Positions 14,238 to 35,995 are shown, counted from the stretch's first letter. The stretch is DNA of 64,000 bases from a virus (IMGVR_UViG_3300042520_001767:32001-96000), one strand, 5' to 3'. Made by a program: numbers and translations. The notes: generated by a model from the sequence alone, not told the origin.

Positions 14238-14312
14238 GTGAATTTTTTATTAATTTTTCTTGTTATTTATTTGTTTTTAAAGATAATTATATATACCTTT
14301 GATTATAAATAT

Positions 14313-15860
14313 ATGGAAATGGAAAATAATTTAAAATATAAAGATTTTTTTTTAAATAATAATAAATCTGGTTGGAAAACGTCTGAAAATAAATTAATAA
14401 AAAATGAAATTGATTTATATAATAAAATAATTATTCATTGTGAAAAAAATAATTTAACTGATATCACATTCAAAGAAAAAATTTGGTTTTTCATTAATTC
14501 AGTAAACACTAAACCAAAATGTTTAGAGTGTGAAAAGTTGTTAAAATTTGGTAAGTCTTTAAATATTGGTTATGGTAAATATTGTTCTTTAACTTGTACT
14601 AATAAAAATTCAGAACATAAAGAAAAAATAAAAATAACTAATAACATTGTATATGGTGGTAACACACCATTTTCGTCTAAAGATGTTATTTCTAAAACAA
14701 AAAAAACAAATATTGAAAGATATGGTGTTGATAATGTGATGAAGTTAGATAGGGTTAAAGAAATTTTTAAACAAGGTTCTTTAAATAAATACGGAACTGA
14801 ATTTCCAGCACAATCTAAAAATACTAAAATTAGAATTGAAAATAAATTAAAGTATGAAAAAATAGAAATAATTAATAGTTGCAATGGTTTATATTCTATT
14901 AAATGTCAAAAATGTAATGAAATTACTATATTTAATAATAATGAAATAAATTATAGATTTAGAATAGATATACCTATTTGTAAAAATTGTTTTAATTTAA
15001 AAAATAACATTAGTTATCCAGAAACTGAAATTTCAGATTATATTAAATCATTTAATATTAATGTAATCGAAAACGATAGAAAAAAATTAAATGGATTAGA
15101 ACTTGATTTGTTAATACCAGAATATAATCTTGCTATTGAATTTAATGGGTTATATTGGCATTCTGAAATATATAAAGATAAAAATTATCATTTAAATAAA
15201 ACACAACAATGCGAAGCAAAAAAAATTAAACTAATCCATATATTTGAAGATGAGTGGTTATTTAAAAAAGATATAGTAAAATCTAGATTAATTAATATAC
15301 TTGGTTTAACCCCAAATAAAATATATGCTAGAAAAACTATAATTAAAGAAATTTCACCTAAAGAATCTAAAGAATTTCTTGATTTTAATCATATACAAGG
15401 TAATGTTAATGCTAAAATAAAATTAGGGTTATATTATGATAATGAGTTGGTTAGTATAATGACTTTCGGTAAAGGTAGAATTATAATGGGTGGTAATTCA
15501 AACCAATATGAACTTCTTAGATTTTGTAATAAATTAAATACAACAGTTATTGGTGGAGCTGATAAATTACTTAAATATTTTATCAAAACATATCAACCAA
15601 AAGAAATAATAAGTTATGCTGATAGAAGGTGGTCACAAGGTGATTTATATGAAAAGTTAGGTTTTAATTTTATTCATAATTCAAAACCTAACTATTTTTA
15701 TATTAATCAGAATATTAGAGAATATAGATTTAAATATAGAAAAAATATTTTAGTTAAAGAAGGGTATGATATAAATAAAACTGAAAGAGACATTATGTTA
15801 GAAAGAAAAATATATAGAATTTATGATTGTGGTGCTAAATTATATAAATTAAATTTATAA
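14313..15860 (+). CDS. Free-standing Hef-like homing endonuclease, paralogue of 12038..13609
   Basis: Same domain order (NNKSGWK...ELDLLI...LAIEFNGLYWHS...YARKTIIKEI...IYDCG). Start moved from 14238 to ATG 14313 (or 14319) to match the paralogue. Confidence 0.7.
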   Translation: MEMENNLKYKDFFLNNNKSGWKTSENKLIKNEIDLYNKIIIHCEKNNLTDITFKEKIWFFINSVNTKPKCLECEKLLKFGKSLNIGYGKYCSLTCTNKNSEHKEKIKITNNIVYGGNTPFSSKDVISKTKKTNIERYGVDNVMKLDRVKEIFKQGSLNKYGTEFPAQSKNTKIRIENKLKYEKIEIINSCNGLYSIKCQKCNEITIFNNNEINYRFRIDIPICKNCFNLKNNISYPETEISDYIKSFNINVIENDRKKLNGLELDLLIPEYNLAIEFNGLYWHSEIYKDKNYHLNKTQQCEAKKIKLIHIFEDEWLFKKDIVKSRLINILGLTPNKIYARKTIIKEISPKESKEFLDFNHIQGNVNAKIKLGLYYDNELVSIMTFGKGRIIMGGNSNQYELLRFCNKLNTTVIGGADKLLKYFIKTYQPKEIISYADRRWSQGDLYEKLGFNFIHNSKPNYFYINQNIREYRFKYRKNILVKEGYDINKTERDIMLERKIYRIYDCGAKLYKLNL

Positions 15861-15881
15861 AATAAATTAATAAAAAAAAAT

Positions 15882-16581: not shown

Positions 16582-16611
16582 ATCTATAAATATATACAAA
16601 AACAAAAAAAA

Positions 16612-16881
16612 CCAAAAGAGATAATAAGTTATGCTGATAGAAGATGGTCACAAGGTAATTTATATGAAAAATTAAATTTTATAAATACACATAATTCACA
16701 ACCAAATTATCATTATATTATAAATAATAAAAGAAAATATAGATTTGGTTTTAGAAAAAATATATTAATTAAACAAGGTTATAACTCAGATAAAACAGAA
16801 CATCAAATAATGTTAGATAGAAAAATATACAGGATATATGATTGTGGGACTATGGTATATAAAAAAACCCTAAACTATTAA
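16612..16881 (+). pseudogene. Orphan C-terminal 89 codons of a Hef-like endonuclease
   Basis: PKEIISYADRRWSQGNLYEKLNF...KYRFGFRKNILIKQGY...KIYRIYDCGTMVYKKTLNY*; frame intact, no start codon; aligns with the end of 14313..15860. Confidence 0.85.
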
Positions 16882-16894
16882 TTTAGGGTTTTTT
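16861..16894. terminator. Bidirectional terminator
   Basis: AAAAAAACCCTAAA-ctatta-atTTAGGGTTTTTT between the orphan Hef tail and the sheath stop. Confidence 0.75.
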
Positions 16895-30390: not shown

Positions 30391-33345
30391 TTGATTTCAC
30401 TTGATGACATACGAGGCCGCTCAGCTTTATCCTTTCTAGAAAAATATGAAGGTATAAACCCATATCTTAGAAAATTAAAGGGTGAATATTTAAAAAATAA
30501 AAAATTAGCTCTTACTGAAAACCAATCAAAATATATTATAGATAATCACGAAAGAGAACCACAATATATAAATAGAGTAATTAGTATAACACCTTATTTA
30601 GGTGAAGAACTAAAAAAAATTGATAATCTACCATTCACACCAGAAAAAATACTAATTGAATTTATTTTGGCTGAAACAGATAAGAGTTACCACGTTTATG
30701 GCAAACTTAAACAAAATCAAAAAGAATCCAAAATGTATTGGATTCCTAAAACACAAGTTAATGACGACCCTTATTTTGAAAAAATAGATGTAGATGTCGA
30801 TTTTACAAAATATAATGAAATACTTAGTAAATACGGTAAAACACTCTACAAACACCAAGAAGATGGTATCAAGTTTTTATTATCTAGAAATGGGTGTATC
30901 TTAGCTGACGACATGGGACTTGGGAAATCCTTGATTATCAGCACTTTAGCTATAACACCTACTGGAACTAAGAGATTTGGTGATTTAAAAGTTGGTGATA
31001 GAATAATTGGTTCTAATGGTAAACCGTGTAATATTATAGGTGTTTATCCGCAAGGTGAAAAAGACTTATATAAAGTAACATTTAATGATGGGTATAGTAT
31101 TTTATGTTGTAAGGAACATTTATGGACAGTATCTTCATGTAATTCTGGTGAAAATTCTAAAAATAGAGAAAATAGATATATAACACTTAGTACTGAACAA
31201 ATGTTAGATGAAAACCTAATATTAGAACAAATTGGTACTGGTTGGAATGAAAAACGACCATATAAGTTTAAAACATATTATAAACAAAAAAATGGTGATT
31301 CTAAATGGCAAATTCCAATTGTTAAACCAATTGAATTTGAAAATAACGATGTTTTACCGATTGAACCTTACTTATTAGGTGTTGCGTTGGGTGATGGTCA
31401 TTTTGATAGTAAAAACAATATTAAAATAGGTATACATAAAGAAGATTTTAATGAGATATTTGAAACCTATGATTTTATTGAACGAAAGCCTACTGGAAAT
31501 ATCAGGATAGCTTATTTCAAAATACTAAACCATATAAATAATTTAGGTTTATCTGATACACATTCAGATACTAAATTCATTCCAGAAATTTATAAATATT
31601 CTAGTATCGAAAATAGACTTGCGATATTACAAGGTCTTATGGATACTGATGGTCATTGTATGAAATCAAAAAACGGTGAATTCAATGGTACTGAGTATTG
31701 TACCGTATCTGAAAGATTAGCTGATGATGTTGCGGATATTGTACATTCTTTGGGTGGTATTGTCAGAAAGAAAAGTAAAATTGGTTCATATAAAAAAGAA
31801 GATGGAACAAAAGTTATATGTAAACGTGCCTATAGATTAAATATTAAAATGCCAGAACAATTCAATCCATTCAGATTAAAAAGAAAGGCTAACGATTATA
31901 ATCCTCCTACAAAATATAAAATTGGTAGATATATTAAAAATATCGAACCTTGTGGTAAAGGTGAATCGGTTTGTATTGCTGTAGATGCACCAGATAAATT
32001 ATATGTTGTTGAGAATGCGATTGTAACGCATAATACAACTCAATCAATTATTGGTGCTATTGAGAGTGGTGCTGAAAGAATTCTTATTGTTACAACTTCA
32101 TCAACAAAGATTAACTGGGAACGTGAAATAAAAGTTTTTTGTGATGAAACAACAATTATCGATGGAAAGAAATGGGATGTAAGTAAATTTACTATTATAA
32201 ATTTTGATATTTTAAAGAATTTTCATACACTACCACCTACTAGAAAATTAAAAGAAGGTGAAGAAGAACCAAATCAAATTAGAGATTTAGTCAACGCTAA
32301 ATTTGATTTATGTATTGTGGATGAGGCACATAATTTAAAAAACAATGAGAGTATTAGAGGTAAAATAATGGTTGATGTTTGTGTTAAACACAATATACCA
32401 AAAGTGTGGTTACTTACTGGTACACCAGTAGCAAATAGACCTATGGATTTCTTTAATCTTTTAAAGTTAATTAAGTCACCTATAGCTAATAATTGGAAAC
32501 ACTACGCTGTTAGATACTGTGATGGTAAACAGTTCTTTAGAACGCTTAAAAATGGTCAAAGAAAGCAAGTATGGATAACTGATGGTGCGTCAAATTTAGA
32601 AGAATTATCAAATAAAACAAAAAATTTATTATTAAGGCGTTTAAAAACGGAAGCTATCGACATGCCAGATAAAATAGTAACCCCTATGTACCATCAATTA
32701 GATTCTAAGGGGTGGAAGATGTACCATCAATTATGGGATGAATATGTTGAAATGAAAAAGAAATTAGGTAAAAGGACTAATGAGTCACAAAAAGATTTGG
32801 TTGAATTAATTTTATTGAGACAATTTATTGCAATTCAAGCAATCCCATACACTATTGAAATGGTTGAAAATGCTTTAGAAATGGGTAGAAAGGTAATTAT
32901 TTTTACTTCATTTTCAGAAGAACAAGATATAATTGCGAATCATTTTGGTAAATTGGCTGTAAGACATAATGGTTCGTTATCAAATGCTAAAAAACAACAT
33001 TCAGTTGACCAGTTCCAGAATAACGATAAAATAAAAGTATTTATTGGTAATATAAAGAGTGCTGGTGTTGGAATTACACTTACACAAGCTACTGTTGTAA
33101 TATTTAATTCATTTGATTGGGTAACTGGTAATAATGAACAAGCTGAAGATAGGTCGTTCAGAATTGGGCAAAAGAACGATGTAAACGTTTATTATCAATT
33201 ATTTGAAGACACGATTTCAGTTAGGATGTGGGAAACTTTAAAACAAAAAAAACAAGTAATTAACACAATATTAGGTGTTGATAATACATCAAAAGAAGAT
33301 GAAACTGATTTATTAATTCAAAAAATGTTAGATGGTGAATTATAA
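30391..33345 (+). CDS. SNF2/SWI2-family helicase with intein
   Basis: ILADDMGLGK|T Walker A, IVDEAH, LLTGTP, FIGNIKSAGVGITL, QAEDRSFRIGQ; TTG start. Confidence 0.92.
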   Translation: MISLDDIRGRSALSFLEKYEGINPYLRKLKGEYLKNKKLALTENQSKYIIDNHEREPQYINRVISITPYLGEELKKIDNLPFTPEKILIEFILAETDKSYHVYGKLKQNQKESKMYWIPKTQVNDDPYFEKIDVDVDFTKYNEILSKYGKTLYKHQEDGIKFLLSRNGCILADDMGLGKSLIISTLAITPTGTKRFGDLKVGDRIIGSNGKPCNIIGVYPQGEKDLYKVTFNDGYSILCCKEHLWTVSSCNSGENSKNRENRYITLSTEQMLDENLILEQIGTGWNEKRPYKFKTYYKQKNGDSKWQIPIVKPIEFENNDVLPIEPYLLGVALGDGHFDSKNNIKIGIHKEDFNEIFETYDFIERKPTGNIRIAYFKILNHINNLGLSDTHSDTKFIPEIYKYSSIENRLAILQGLMDTDGHCMKSKNGEFNGTEYCTVSERLADDVADIVHSLGGIVRKKSKIGSYKKEDGTKVICKRAYRLNIKMPEQFNPFRLKRKANDYNPPTKYKIGRYIKNIEPCGKGESVCIAVDAPDKLYVVENAIVTHNTTQSIIGAIESGAERILIVTTSSTKINWEREIKVFCDETTIIDGKKWDVSKFTIINFDILKNFHTLPPTRKLKEGEEEPNQIRDLVNAKFDLCIVDEAHNLKNNESIRGKIMVDVCVKHNIPKVWLLTGTPVANRPMDFFNLLKLIKSPIANNWKHYAVRYCDGKQFFRTLKNGQRKQVWITDGASNLEELSNKTKNLLLRRLKTEAIDMPDKIVTPMYHQLDSKGWKMYHQLWDEYVEMKKKLGKRTNESQKDLVELILLRQFIAIQAIPYTIEMVENALEMGRKVIIFTSFSEEQDIIANHFGKLAVRHNGSLSNAKKQHSVDQFQNNDKIKVFIGNIKSAGVGITLTQATVVIFNSFDWVTGNNEQAEDRSFRIGQKNDVNVYYQLFEDTISVRMWETLKQKKQVINTILGVDNTSKEDETDLLIQKMLDGEL
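30928..32034 (+). mobile_element. 369-aa intein with LAGLIDADG endonuclease in the helicase Walker A
   Basis: GK|SLIIST...IVTHN|TTQ: Ser1, His-Asn end, Thr+1; YLLGVALGDG and LQGLMDTDG motifs. Confidence 0.92.
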
Positions 33346-33849
33346 CTTTTTACGTTTAATTTTATTTCTATTTAGATTACCTTCATAATAAACATCATTA
33401 ATCACCCTAGTAGTACTCCACATAGGTCTTAAATTTTCCAATGCGTTGACAACACTAGGGTGCTCAGTTGTGTCAAAACTACTTACTGGTTTAATGTGGT
33501 CAACATGCCACTCACCATGATTATCCCATGACATACCTTCTGTGAATAACAGCTCAATATGTTTTTTAAATTCTAAGGCAGAGTACCCAAGAAGGTCTAT
33601 TGTGTAACCTTCTTTTTTAGTGTTTAATCGCCATAGTGACATTTTAAGAACGCTTCTCCACAAACCAACATGTTTATTTTTTAATCTATATTCTCGTCTT
33701 TTATCTTGGTTTTTTTGATTGTATTCTTTTTTATAATTATTTTTACATTCTTTACATTGACAATAATAACCATCTTTACCTAATTTATTAACGTGAAATT
33801 CAGTAATTGATTTCTCAATATTACATTTAGTACATATTTTACTTTGCAT
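33340..33849 (-). CDS. HNH homing endonuclease with N-terminal Zn-finger
   Basis: CTKC...CKEC; MSWDNHGEWHVDHIKP...NLRPMW...N. Likely start ATG 33849, overlapping the RHH gene stop. Confidence 0.8.
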   Translation of the reverse strand: MQSKICTKCNIEKSITEFHVNKLGKDGYYCQCKECKNNYKKEYNQKNQDKRREYRLKNKHVGLWRSVLKMSLWRLNTKKEGYTIDLLGYSALEFKKHIELLFTEGMSWDNHGEWHVDHIKPVSSFDTTEHPSVVNALENLRPMWSTTRVINDVYYEGNLNRNKIKRKKL

Positions 33850-34246
33850 TTGGAATAACTTTAAAATCAATGTTATATGGTGTTGAATCTTCTAAGTAAA
33901 ATTGAACATAACCATAAGTCATATTATTTTCTTTATTAAATAATATATCTGACACAATGGTTTCAAAACCTAAATTCTCTTTTAATGCATCTTCTAAAAC
34001 TTTTTTAAGTGTGTCAGTAAATTCGAATAATCCATTGGTTAAAATTTTATTTAAAACCATTTTAGTTAATAATATTCTAATTGATTTTTCTTGTGCTAAA
34101 TAAACACCATCTTCGATACAATTAATATCATCATTTATAAAATTAACTATTTTATCACTCATTGATAAAGACTCAATTTTGCATTTATTTTTAAACTTAT
34201 GTTTAAGTTCAGAATTTATTCTAATTTTTATTTCCGTTTCTTTCAT
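33839..34246 (-). CDS. Protein with N-terminal ribbon-helix-helix-like domain
   Basis: MKETEIKIRINSELKHKFKNKCKIESLSMSDKIVNFI is Arc/MetJ-like; imperfect palindrome TGTGGTAACATTGTACCCACA at 34274-34294 lies upstream. Confidence 0.55.
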   Translation of the reverse strand: MKETEIKIRINSELKHKFKNKCKIESLSMSDKIVNFINDDINCIEDGVYLAQEKSIRILLTKMVLNKILTNGLFEFTDTLKKVLEDALKENLGFETIVSDILFNKENNMTYGYVQFYLEDSTPYNIDFKVIPNAK

Positions 34247-34362
34247 TTTAATTAATTTAATTAAATTATTATTTGTGGTAACATTGTACCCACATTAATA
34301 AATATATTAATATTTTTAAAAATTAATATATTTACTTTCTTTTTAAAAATATTTATCATTGT

Positions 34363-34569
34363 AATAACGAACAATCAGAAGATAGGTCGTTCAGAATTGG
34401 GCAAAAGAACGATGTAAACGTATATTATCAATTATTTGAAGATACAATATCAACAAGAATGTGGGAAATGCTTAGAAATAAAAAAGATATTATCTCAACC
34501 ATTATGGGTGAGAAAAAATTAACAGATGATGAAATAACTGATTTACTATCAGAACAATTAATAGAATAA
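34363..34569 (+). pseudogene. Orphan helicase C-terminus (68 codons)
   Basis: NNEQSEDRSFRIGQKNDVNVYYQLFEDTISTRMWEMLRNKKDIISTIMGEKK...LIE*; frame intact, no start; ends 3 nt before glutaredoxin. Confidence 0.9.
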
Positions 34570-34572
34570 AAT

Positions 34573-34848
34573 ATGGTAACAATTTATGGATTTAAAGACT
34601 GTCCTTACTGTACTGAATTAAAGGACATATTAACAGCCGAAGGTATCGAGTTCAAAGACGTTGACGTTAACCTTCCAGAGAACGAAGAAGAGTTCAACAA
34701 GATTATGGAAATATCAAAAGCGGAAGAAGTTCCAATTGTAAAAGTGGGTAAACAATTACTAGTCCCAAATGTTTCATTTAAATCGATTCAAGAAGCTTAC
34801 TACTTAACTATCAAATTATTAAGCGACTCAAACACATCTTCAAAATAA
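34573..34848 (+). CDS. Glutaredoxin (NrdH/Grx-like)
   Basis: CPYC active site and VPIVKVG; the last 49 nt overlap the antisense endonuclease gene. Confidence 0.88.
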   Translation: MVTIYGFKDCPYCTELKDILTAEGIEFKDVDVNLPENEEEFNKIMEISKAEEVPIVKVGKQLLVPNVSFKSIQEAYYLTIKLLSDSNTSSK

Positions 34849-35882
34849 GGTATTCGTTTAAGATTTATTTTATTAACTAAACAAAATTTGTTTTTAATTG
34901 AGTCATTTTGTTTAGTTAATAAAAACGATTTTTCACCACCAAATCTATTTACTGGTTTATAATGCTGTATACCATCAAATTCAATACATGTGTTATAGTC
35001 TGGCAAATAAAAATCAAATTGTAAAACTTGTATATTCTTACAATTTGGAAATGTGTGTTGTTGCTTGAATTTAACACCATTTTTAATTAAATATTCTCTA
35101 ATTTTCTTCTCCCCTTTTGATTCTTTACAAATAGGGCAACCATTACCTCTTAGATGCATATTAGGTGTTTGTGTAAAAACACCATGTTTCTCACAAACGA
35201 TTTCTATTTTACTTTTTGAATCTTTATAAACTGTTTTCGAATAATCGTATTTATCACCATGTTCCATTTTAGCGTCTTTAACAAAAGTATCTGTTGTTTT
35301 ATTTAAACCAATACATTTTGGACAACCTTGCCCATATAAATGAGCATAAGATAGTTGTTCAAAAACACCATGTTCTGGACATATTATTTTAATTTTAGTT
35401 TTAGCGTTAACGTATTCAACTAATGAATAATCGTATTTTTTTTCATGAATAAATTCAGCTTTATTTATTAAATCATTATTTGTTTTATGTAAACCATGAC
35501 ACTTACCACATTCTTGACCTTGTAAATGGTTATCTGGTATTTGTTCAAAAACACCATGTTCTGGACATATTATTTTAATTTTAGTTTTAGCGTTAACGTA
35601 TTCAACTAATGAATAATCGTATTTTTTTTCATGAATAAATTCAGCTTTTTCAATAAATTGTTCATTACTTTTTCTAGTTTTAATAGAAACGGTAAGATAT
35701 CTGCACTTAGGACAACCTTGTTTTCTAGTAACATGATGATGCGGTGTTTGCTCAAATTCACCATGAATTGGGCACATTATTTTAACTTTATTTTTAATTC
35801 CATTATAAGCGATTTTAGAATAATCATATTTATCGTTGTGTATAATTCTTGCTTTGCTTATAAATTTAATTTCTTTTTCCAT
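34800..35882 (-). CDS. Free-standing endonuclease with repeated YDYS...CxxHG modules (DUF723-like) and PD-(D/E)xK domain
   Basis: Four KYDYS...KIxIxCxxHGxFxQ modules; LQFDFYLP...CIEFDGIQHY. Confidence 0.75.
   Translation of the reverse strand: MEKEIKFISKARIIHNDKYDYSKIAYNGIKNKVKIMCPIHGEFEQTPHHHVTRKQGCPKCRYLTVSIKTRKSNEQFIEKAEFIHEKKYDYSLVEYVNAKTKIKIICPEHGVFEQIPDNHLQGQECGKCHGLHKTNNDLINKAEFIHEKKYDYSLVEYVNAKTKIKIICPEHGVFEQLSYAHLYGQGCPKCIGLNKTTDTFVKDAKMEHGDKYDYSKTVYKDSKSKIEIVCEKHGVFTQTPNMHLRGNGCPICKESKGEKKIREYLIKNGVKFKQQHTFPNCKNIQVLQFDFYLPDYNTCIEFDGIQHYKPVNRFGGEKSFLLTKQNDSIKNKFCLVNKINLKRIPYFEDVFESLNNLIVK
35355..35648. repeat. 108-bp perfect direct repeat inside the endonuclease gene
   Basis: 35355-35462 equals 35541-35648; offset 186 nt (62 codons). 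Confidence 0.9.
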
Positions 35883-35995
35883 GTTAATAAATATCTACAA
35901 TATTGTTAAAAGATATATTTAGTACTTATTCATAAATAACAAAGAAATTTTTGGGTTAATTCTATTTTTTCTTATATTTATAAGAAAAGAAAAAT

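Follow-up and report, generated by a model that had tools for sequence, protein, structure and literature searches.

A putative homing endonuclease cassette that carries a substitute C-terminus for a phage helicase

We analysed a 64,000-nucleotide (nt) stretch of virus DNA (IMGVR_UViG_3300042520_001767:32001-96000; hereafter the window, in whose positions coordinates are given unless a related locus is named) in which the gene for a SNF2-family helicase has two C-terminal coding ends, separated by a cassette encoding an HNH-type endonuclease and a ribbon-helix-helix (RHH)-like protein. There is no close relative among GenBank or cultured phages, and the helicase is less than 30% identical to any isolate. 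Comparisons were made with 60 related IMG/VR loci (labelled L001 and so on; 44–98% identity), retrieved with the C-terminal half of the helicase as query.

A helicase gene with two C-terminal ends

The helicase gene (30391–33345, plus strand, 984 amino acids (aa)) has Pfam matches to SNF2-rel_dom (7.5e-28), Helicase_C (9.7e-13) and LAGLIDADG_3, and matches PHROG 62, DNA helicase (5.8e-101). It is a hybrid of a resident core and a distal tail borne by the cassette. At its end, the motif VI stretch NNEQAEDRSFRIGQ leads to the terminal residues MLDGEL and the stop codon. The coding sequence of this motif, the attached head (GNNEQAEDRSFRIGQKNDVNVYYQLFED; 33128–33209, plus strand), is repeated at 34361–34442. 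The attached head continues into the replacement C-terminus that the cassette carries (distal A-type tail, 33210–33345, plus strand), and the second copy opens the displaced native C-terminus, a B-type tail that is start-less, intact and 68 codons long (the remnant, 34361–34569, plus strand). We use tail A for the cassette-borne type of C-terminus and tail B for the downstream, native type. The remnant starts at 34361 or 34363, in a frame that is open from a TAA at 34324 and has no ATG, GTG or TTG ahead of the copy, and its stop (34567–34569) lies 3 nt ahead of the ATG (34573) of a glutaredoxin gene, grx (34573–34848, plus strand; Pfam Glutaredoxin, 6.7e-11).

The two tail copies are offset by exactly 1233 bp. 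They match at 64 of 65 nt between 33145–33209 and 34378–34442 and at 78 of 82 nt over the whole shared head (33128–33209), and past 33210 identity drops to ~58%. An independent repeat search paired 33128–33332 with 34361–34565 (205 nt, 74%, spacing 1233).

Both genes between the copies lie on the minus strand. The RHH-like gene (33839–34246) encodes 135 aa and is first in order, overlapping the nuclease gene (33340–33870; likely start ATG 33849, giving 169 aa from an open reading frame (ORF) of 169–176 aa). The hexamer TTATAA at 33340–33345 reads Leu-stop on both strands, and the convergent helicase and HNH genes overlap by these 6 nt. An AT-rich spacer follows, which holds an imperfect palindrome, TGTGGTAAC-ATT-GTACCCACA (34274–34294), and two divergent promoter-like ATATTTAT motifs. 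One of these is on the minus strand (34298–34305), 52 nt upstream of the RHH ATG, with the palindrome just downstream of it; the other points outward on the plus strand (34349–34356), 5 nt ahead of the remnant and 217 nt ahead of the grx ATG. The cassette as a whole, comprising distal tail A, the HNH and RHH genes and the spacer, extends from ~33190–33210 to ~34330–34360.

An earlier reading of the window (the original prediction) had pointed out the helicase ending, the 1233-bp offset, the start-less copy at grx with its 64/65-nt match, and the opposite-strand genes with their TTATAA stop overlap and upstream palindrome, and each was found in place. It had also described the cassette as inserted in motif VI. 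This is loosely put: the edge of the duplication coincides with the 5′ edge of the motif at 33128, and the cassette-specific DNA begins after motif VI, at ~33190–33210. The proposal that no splicing is involved agrees with our searches: there is no intein at the window's cassette site, and no intron or other RNA family in Rfam matches 32800–34900 at E values up to 1.

Empty, occupied and degraded alleles

The state of the site in the 60 loci was sorted by tblastn with the separate parts as queries. In 31 of them the helicase core runs into tail B, and grx follows directly after the helicase stop; such empty alleles, with the downstream tail next to grx, had been anticipated by the original prediction. 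Ten loci (L001–3, L018, L038, L020, L021, L035, L041 and L043) are occupied, with an attached tail A and, after it, the HNH gene on the minus strand. Of these, L001–3, L018, L038, L035 and L043 also show the RHH gene and, ahead of grx, a B-type remnant. The contigs of L020 and L021 end too early to show a remnant, that of L021 also ending before the RHH gene; in L041 no remnant was detected, and the RHH forms the C-terminal part of a terminase-like ORF. Five distinct occupied arrangements were compared (window, L001, L018, L043 and L035); in these and in L019, the start of the remnant falls within 1–3 nt of one point, which argues for a single origin of the occupied arrangement.

Some loci depart from the full arrangement. 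In L019, the remnant begins 4 nt after the stop of tail A, and there is no HNH or RHH gene. An ordinary tandem duplication without these genes had been named as an outcome that would speak against a cassette, and L019 does show tandem tails. However, the helicase-core tree nests it with two occupied loci, L018 and L020, and its junction coincides with an 8-nt direct repeat (ATTTATAA), which in L018 bounds the segment missing from L019 on either side; L019 is therefore best read, from its sequence, as a deletion derivative of an occupied allele rather than as an ordinary duplication. Its tails are near-identical to those of L018 and, at 61% aa identity to each other, as diverged as elsewhere. 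L039 has an A-like tail and an RHH gene, with neither HNH gene nor remnant. In two of the occupied loci, L018 (6937–8103) and L038, a 388-aa TnpB (Cas12f1-like TNB domain, 5.5e-20) is inserted between tail A and the HNH gene, whose product is without the invariant C-terminal GNLN, suggesting that one mobile element has damaged another.

Three loci with tail B, L004, L005 (7132–8217) and L017, carry a 362-aa Hint/LAGLIDADG intein in motif VI (EDR/C...HN/C), at a point 24 nt into the head sequence of which the window has two copies. No relative is closer to the window in the helicase core than L005 (98% aa), so an intein-bearing allele may have been overwritten by the cassette; alternatively, L005 may have acquired its intein at a later time. 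L032 and L036 were considered as hybrid alleles left by excision, a reading that we discarded, as one or two diagnostic residues are too weak a basis for it. A distant relative, L048 (575–1654), has in-frame TAG and TGA codons at conserved positions of the helicase core, which could reflect recoding, a pseudogene or sequencing errors.

Evidence that the cassette moves between phages

In the tail phylogeny, the A tails constitute a single clade (Shimodaira–Hasegawa-like approximate likelihood ratio test (SH-aLRT) 94; 98 for the inner seven rows), and the six remnants are dispersed among the attached B tails of their own lineages, that of the window beside L005, L006 and L017 and that of L001 beside L010. 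At the aa level, the window remnant is 95% identical to the L005 tail and 91% identical to that of L006. On the helicase-core tree the A carriers are instead dispersed, with well-supported branches that force at least five changes, and placing them in a single clade is rejected (difference in log-likelihood 570; approximately unbiased (AU) test, p 1.2e-4).

The window and L001 are 75–88% identical in the flanks (the core, and beyond the remnant start) and 95–100% identical from 33193 to ~34330. Mismatches are dense upstream of 33190, whereas only 4 fall in 33190–33345 and 32 in the 901 nt of the HNH and RHH genes. Synonymous divergence (dS) is low within the cassette (tail A 0.04, RHH 0.10, HNH 0.19) and far higher outside it (core 1.0, remnant 1.47). 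At the level of sequence comparison, the single clade of A tails against their dispersed carriers, together with the low dS of the cassette relative to its flanks, shows that distal tail A, HNH, RHH and spacer travel together between related uncultured phages. The frame of a cassette-bearing helicase reads through into the cassette tail, and the resident tail appears to be left as an untranslated remnant before grx. The original prediction had the gene repaired with a C-terminus brought by the element itself, and this is borne out: the attached tail belongs to a foreign lineage and travels with HNH and RHH across unrelated helicase backgrounds.

The backbone of the window gives the extent of the exchange. 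It is L005-like (~98%) up to 32985 and from 34450 onwards, but not in 32986–34449; mismatches to L005 number 21 in 32023–32985, 23 in 32986–33144 and 3 in 34450–34571. A tract of ~1.46 kb has thus been replaced in an L005-like genome. The inner 1.1–1.15 kb of the tract is the cassette common to L001, whose helicase is only 87% identical. To its left, a patch covering the 3′ core of the helicase and the motif VI head (32986–33189, plus strand) resembles neither the L005-like backbone nor the L001-like cassette. Many of the positions in 32986–33144 that mismatch L005 also differ from L001, and the patch comes from a third lineage.

Probable overwriting of the duplicated sequences

The near-identity of the two heads is specific to the window genome and not built into the element. 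Many synonymous sites separate the attached head from the remnant head in L001, L018, L043 and L035, and dS between the two heads is 2.1 in L001 against 0.37 in the window. A role for the 64/65-nt identity as a built-in recombination site was accordingly ruled out, other occupied genomes being without such identity. No relative has a head resembling the window's (71/81 at best), yet this version is present twice. The best explanation is a recent event in which one resident motif VI sequence gave rise to both heads, by gene conversion within the genome or by recombination with local empty alleles.

In the window and L001, cassette-specific sequence starts 60–80 nt into the attached tail and ends at the remnant start, borders that mark exactly how far homology to empty alleles extends. 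The homologous parts may thus be overwritten again and again, through conversion between the copies or through recombination with empty alleles that are resident or co-infecting. Such overwriting would explain why remnants are intact and have the ratio of nonsynonymous to synonymous rates (ω) of functional tails. All six distinct remnants examined (nine loci including duplicates) are intact, with ω of 0.04–0.12, on a par with functional tails (0.08–0.25); ω of the window remnant against attached B tails is 0.08–0.10. We also tried to place the cut site from the tract borders. This was abandoned, since borders at the limits of homology are what recombination alone would yield and so do not reveal where a break was made.

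The cassette proteins

The HNH protein matches PHROG 1035 (4.3e-27) and PHROG 2255, 'HNH endonuclease' (2.9e-11), and a search for homologues found 442. In an alignment of 33 of these it consists of an N-terminal four-cysteine zinc ribbon, a spacer of variable length and an invariant block. Residues C6/C9, D117-H118, N139 and G157-N158-L159-N160 are invariant, and C32/C35 and N135 nearly so. The block has the residue pattern expected of HNH nucleases, with a D-H dipeptide, a putative structural Asn and a distal Asn. The AlphaFold2 (AF2) model has a predicted local distance difference test (pLDDT) score of 90. HNH, RHH and tail A are all under purifying selection (ω 0.08–0.53), with ω of 0.09–0.15 for HNH and 0.08–0.53 for tail A. 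Further copies of the same HNH family, 42–68% identical, occur elsewhere in relatives (L004, L005, L010/L011 and L041:1276–1638), those of L004 and L005 ~3 kb upstream of the helicase tail.

The RHH-like protein combines an N-terminal ribbon-helix-helix of ~40 aa with a C-terminal alpha/beta domain. Its profile matches are weak and below threshold, though concordant: Arc-like repressor in PHROG (3e-4 and 1.8e-3), and in Pfam RelB (0.021, in 4 of 14 members) and, for some members, RepB. Only 11 homologues were found, all within this cassette family. In the monomer model, helices 12–24 and 29–39 follow a short N-terminal segment. A homodimer model of residues 1–48 scored 0.44 against 0.00 for the best control, passing a mark that 20 of 30 solved homodimers attain, as does 1 of 23 monomers. 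Agreement between runs is 92% of contacts or more, pLDDT is at least 75, and residues 4–10 pair antiparallel around residue 7, a hallmark of RHH proteins. The pass may stem from likeness to solved RHH dimers. Sequence searches of solved structures returned nothing for HNH and chance-level matches alone for the RHH protein, and fold searches with the RHH model gave no convincing score; the C-terminal domain shows a weak likeness to T4 gp25 (E 6e-3, template modelling score (TM) 0.37).

Candidate regulatory sequences in the spacer

The palindrome at 34274–34294 is a candidate operator for the RHH protein. It is kept in L001, L018 (with one substitution) and L043 while the adjoining spacer varies, and L035 has a variant changed in both arms. 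It could alternatively form an RNA hairpin. The outward motif at 34349–34356 is also kept in L001, L018 and L043.

The ATATTTAT motif occurs 47 times in the window against 27 expected. Of these copies, 27 fall in the non-coding 9% of the window, most of them 5–70 nt upstream of a start on the same strand, and the motif is likely to be a phage promoter element. Further sites lie, for example, at 35887–35894 and 35974–35981. A scan for sigma-70 promoters and terminators gave scores not above those of shuffled sequences, and no terminator.

A proposed homing cycle and its alternatives

We propose that the locus is occupied by a mobile cassette that has a free-standing HNH homing endonuclease at its centre and carries a substitute helicase C-terminus, a reading to which we give a probability of roughly 0.78. 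The HNH protein would be the driver of cassette spread. It would cut or nick cassette-free helicase alleles near the duplication boundary, and the break would be repaired from an occupied genome, whose homology arms would be the helicase core and head on the left and the remnant plus grx on the right. An RHH dimer would bind the palindrome and limit transcription of the RHH–HNH operon, and the outward motif would restore transcription of grx, with the remnant as leader. The site shows features of free-standing homing, namely presence/absence polymorphism at a fixed site, horizontal spread and no embedding in an intron or intein.

Several observations weigh against this proposal. No Pfam domain is found in the window HNH protein or in any of its 442 homologues, and fold searches with the model returned weak ββα-Me matches (Z 3.2–4.9). 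The best of these, Hpy99I (Z 4.9, root mean square deviation 2.1 over 40 residues), aligns to the N-terminal zinc part, and residues 58–165 match CAD (Z 3.6) and PacI (Z 3.2) weakly. L019 and L039 persist without HNH, so tail A can be kept without the nuclease. General phage recombination without an endonuclease would produce the same mosaic. The remnant, moreover, keeps the full B-type sequence, and a target inside the duplicated part would mean self-cutting unless the site spans the boundary. In a hypothetical target of this kind, the attached copy would be protected by a Thr codon and the remnant by loss of the left half. Thr (ACT) occupies the codon 4–6 nt before the duplication boundary in 13 of 13 A-tail alleles, and Pro (CCN) does so in 28 near and 11 distant empties and in three intein alleles; L032–34 and L036 (empty, ACT) and two truncated contigs are exceptions. 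Once phylogeny is taken into account, this association is not significant (four pairs the same way, none opposite, one without difference; p 0.125).

The strongest challenge from these points is that the cassette is passive cargo, spread by ordinary homologous recombination, with an HNH protein that is otherwise employed or selfish and does not target the helicase. Plain recombination would yield borders at the limits of homology to empty alleles, as seen, and would be compatible with A-tail alleles that persist without HNH (L019 and L039) and with HNH homologues elsewhere in the phage group (L004, L005, L010 and L041). We nevertheless consider it unlikely, because a neutral interruption of an essential gene, one that needs a substitute tail, would be hard to fix in at least five helicase lineages without drive. 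HNH is also under purifying selection, motif VI is the target of an intein that has an endonuclease of its own, and the arrangement mirrors documented endonuclease-driven gene hybrids (PMC3630166). We hold as doubtful a further idea, that the intact displaced tail is a return path: recombination across the shared head would remove the cassette, making the locus a reversible switch between two helicase C-termini that competes with, and is able to overwrite, the motif VI intein of L005.

Two other origins can be weighed on the make-up of the cassette. A toxin–antitoxin-like or defence module, in which an RHH antitoxin represses the operon and neutralizes the nuclease and the tail duplication is a by-product of the landing place, is suggested by the gene order and overlap, by two homologues named RelB/DinJ antitoxin by the Joint Genome Institute (JGI) along with the weak RelB matches in Pfam, and by the extra C-terminal domain of unassigned role. 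In L035 and L039, however, a different domain takes this place, and the RHH of L041 forms part of a fusion with a terminase-like protein, while the HNH family is conserved throughout, which argues against a specific neutralizing contact; co-variation of the C-terminal domain with a cognate toxin, as in type II toxin–antitoxin pairs, is not seen. L039 retains RHH without any HNH, and the module is always tied to an A-type helicase tail. Such a module is thus very improbable. Least probable of all is that the 3′ end of the helicase was duplicated in tandem before HNH and RHH were inserted between the copies, with the nuclease-free L019 as the ancestral state. The divergence of the L019 tails means that the duplication is not young, its position beside L018 and L020, its L018-like tails and its junction at ATTTATAA fit a deletion, and distal tail A has the same high identity between the window and L001 as HNH and RHH do.

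Other elements in and around the locus

A 369-aa intein with a LAGLIDADG endonuclease domain lies in motif I of the window helicase (GLGK/S...THN/T; 30928–32034), so the gene hosts two different mobile elements, this intein and the cassette. Beyond grx, a second homing-endonuclease-like gene (34800–35882), with DUF723/CapR zinc-finger repeats and a nuclease domain, matches PHROG 559 (1.8e-90). It is convergent with grx, sharing the last 49 nt of that gene, and occurs in L001–3 and partly in L014, L018, L019 and L022–24, but not in L005 and L006.

The window contains a second duplication of a gene end, 15572–15868 and 16587–16883 (297 nt, 76%, spacing 1015), behind a nuclease/Mom-like fusion gene (14238–15860). 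Between the copies are two small genes without known family, with ATATTTAT at the right end, as in the helicase cassette.

Relation to known mobile elements

The closest parallels are the mobile endonuclease ORFs (mORFs) of fungal mitochondria, where a foreign C-terminus arrives and the native one is displaced, giving gene hybrids of atp6, atp9, cox2 and nad3 in Glomus (PMC3630166); atp6 of Allomyces macrogynus is cited there as another mORF gene hybrid (PMC3630166, its ref. 48). As in the mORFs, a foreign C-terminus is in frame with a resident core, an endonuclease gene adjoins it and the native C-terminus lies downstream, the native copy clustering with relatives and the inserted copy elsewhere. 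Unlike the mORFs, the cassette is in a phage, its nuclease is of the HNH rather than the LAGLIDADG or GIY-YIG type, and the nuclease gene runs on the strand opposite the target gene, out of phase with it. The window cassette also adds an RHH regulator gene, a candidate operator and an outward promoter-like motif, and empty, occupied, nuclease-damaged and nuclease-deleted alleles are all found in one population sample. The cassette works like an mORF but, with its HNH nuclease, opposite-strand gene and phage genome, is not a member of that group.

T4-like phages have free-standing homing endonucleases of the Seg and Mob groups, such as MobE, SegB and SegF, that spread by intronless homing, and the HNH members MobA and MobE nick their targets (PMC2988022, PMC2790892, PMC2330249). 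The cassette resembles them in that the nuclease gene stands outside any intron or intein, beside a conserved gene, and is inherited with its flanks by recombination. It differs in that the T4 elements are intergenic and rely on target-site polymorphism, whereas the insertion in the window is inside a coding sequence and the gene is kept whole by the replacement tail. A duplication of the target-gene end is not mentioned in the T4 review (PMC2988022). I-TevI represses its own promoter through an overlapping operator (PMC2988022); expression of the homing endonuclease would similarly be held down here by a protein bound to an operator at the nuclease's promoter, but the candidate repressor is a separate RHH protein, where in T4 the endonuclease represses itself. 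The motif VI intein of L004, L005 and L017 solves the problem of insertion by protein splicing, whereas the cassette replaces the gene end instead. No description of this arrangement in a phage was found in the literature searched, which is not proof of absence.

Homing endonucleases prefer the most conserved sites, the usual view being that an intron or an intein is required for such insertions to stay harmless. The locus described here shows a third way in a phage, that of replacing the gene end. To this it adds a separate RHH regulator with a candidate operator, an outward promoter-like motif, alleles at all the stages of the proposed homing cycle and an intein that competes for the same motif. 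It bears on how free-standing endonucleases enter coding sequences, avoid cutting their own genome and contribute to the mosaicism of phage genes, and it carries a warning for annotation, in that the end of such a gene may have a history different from that of the rest.

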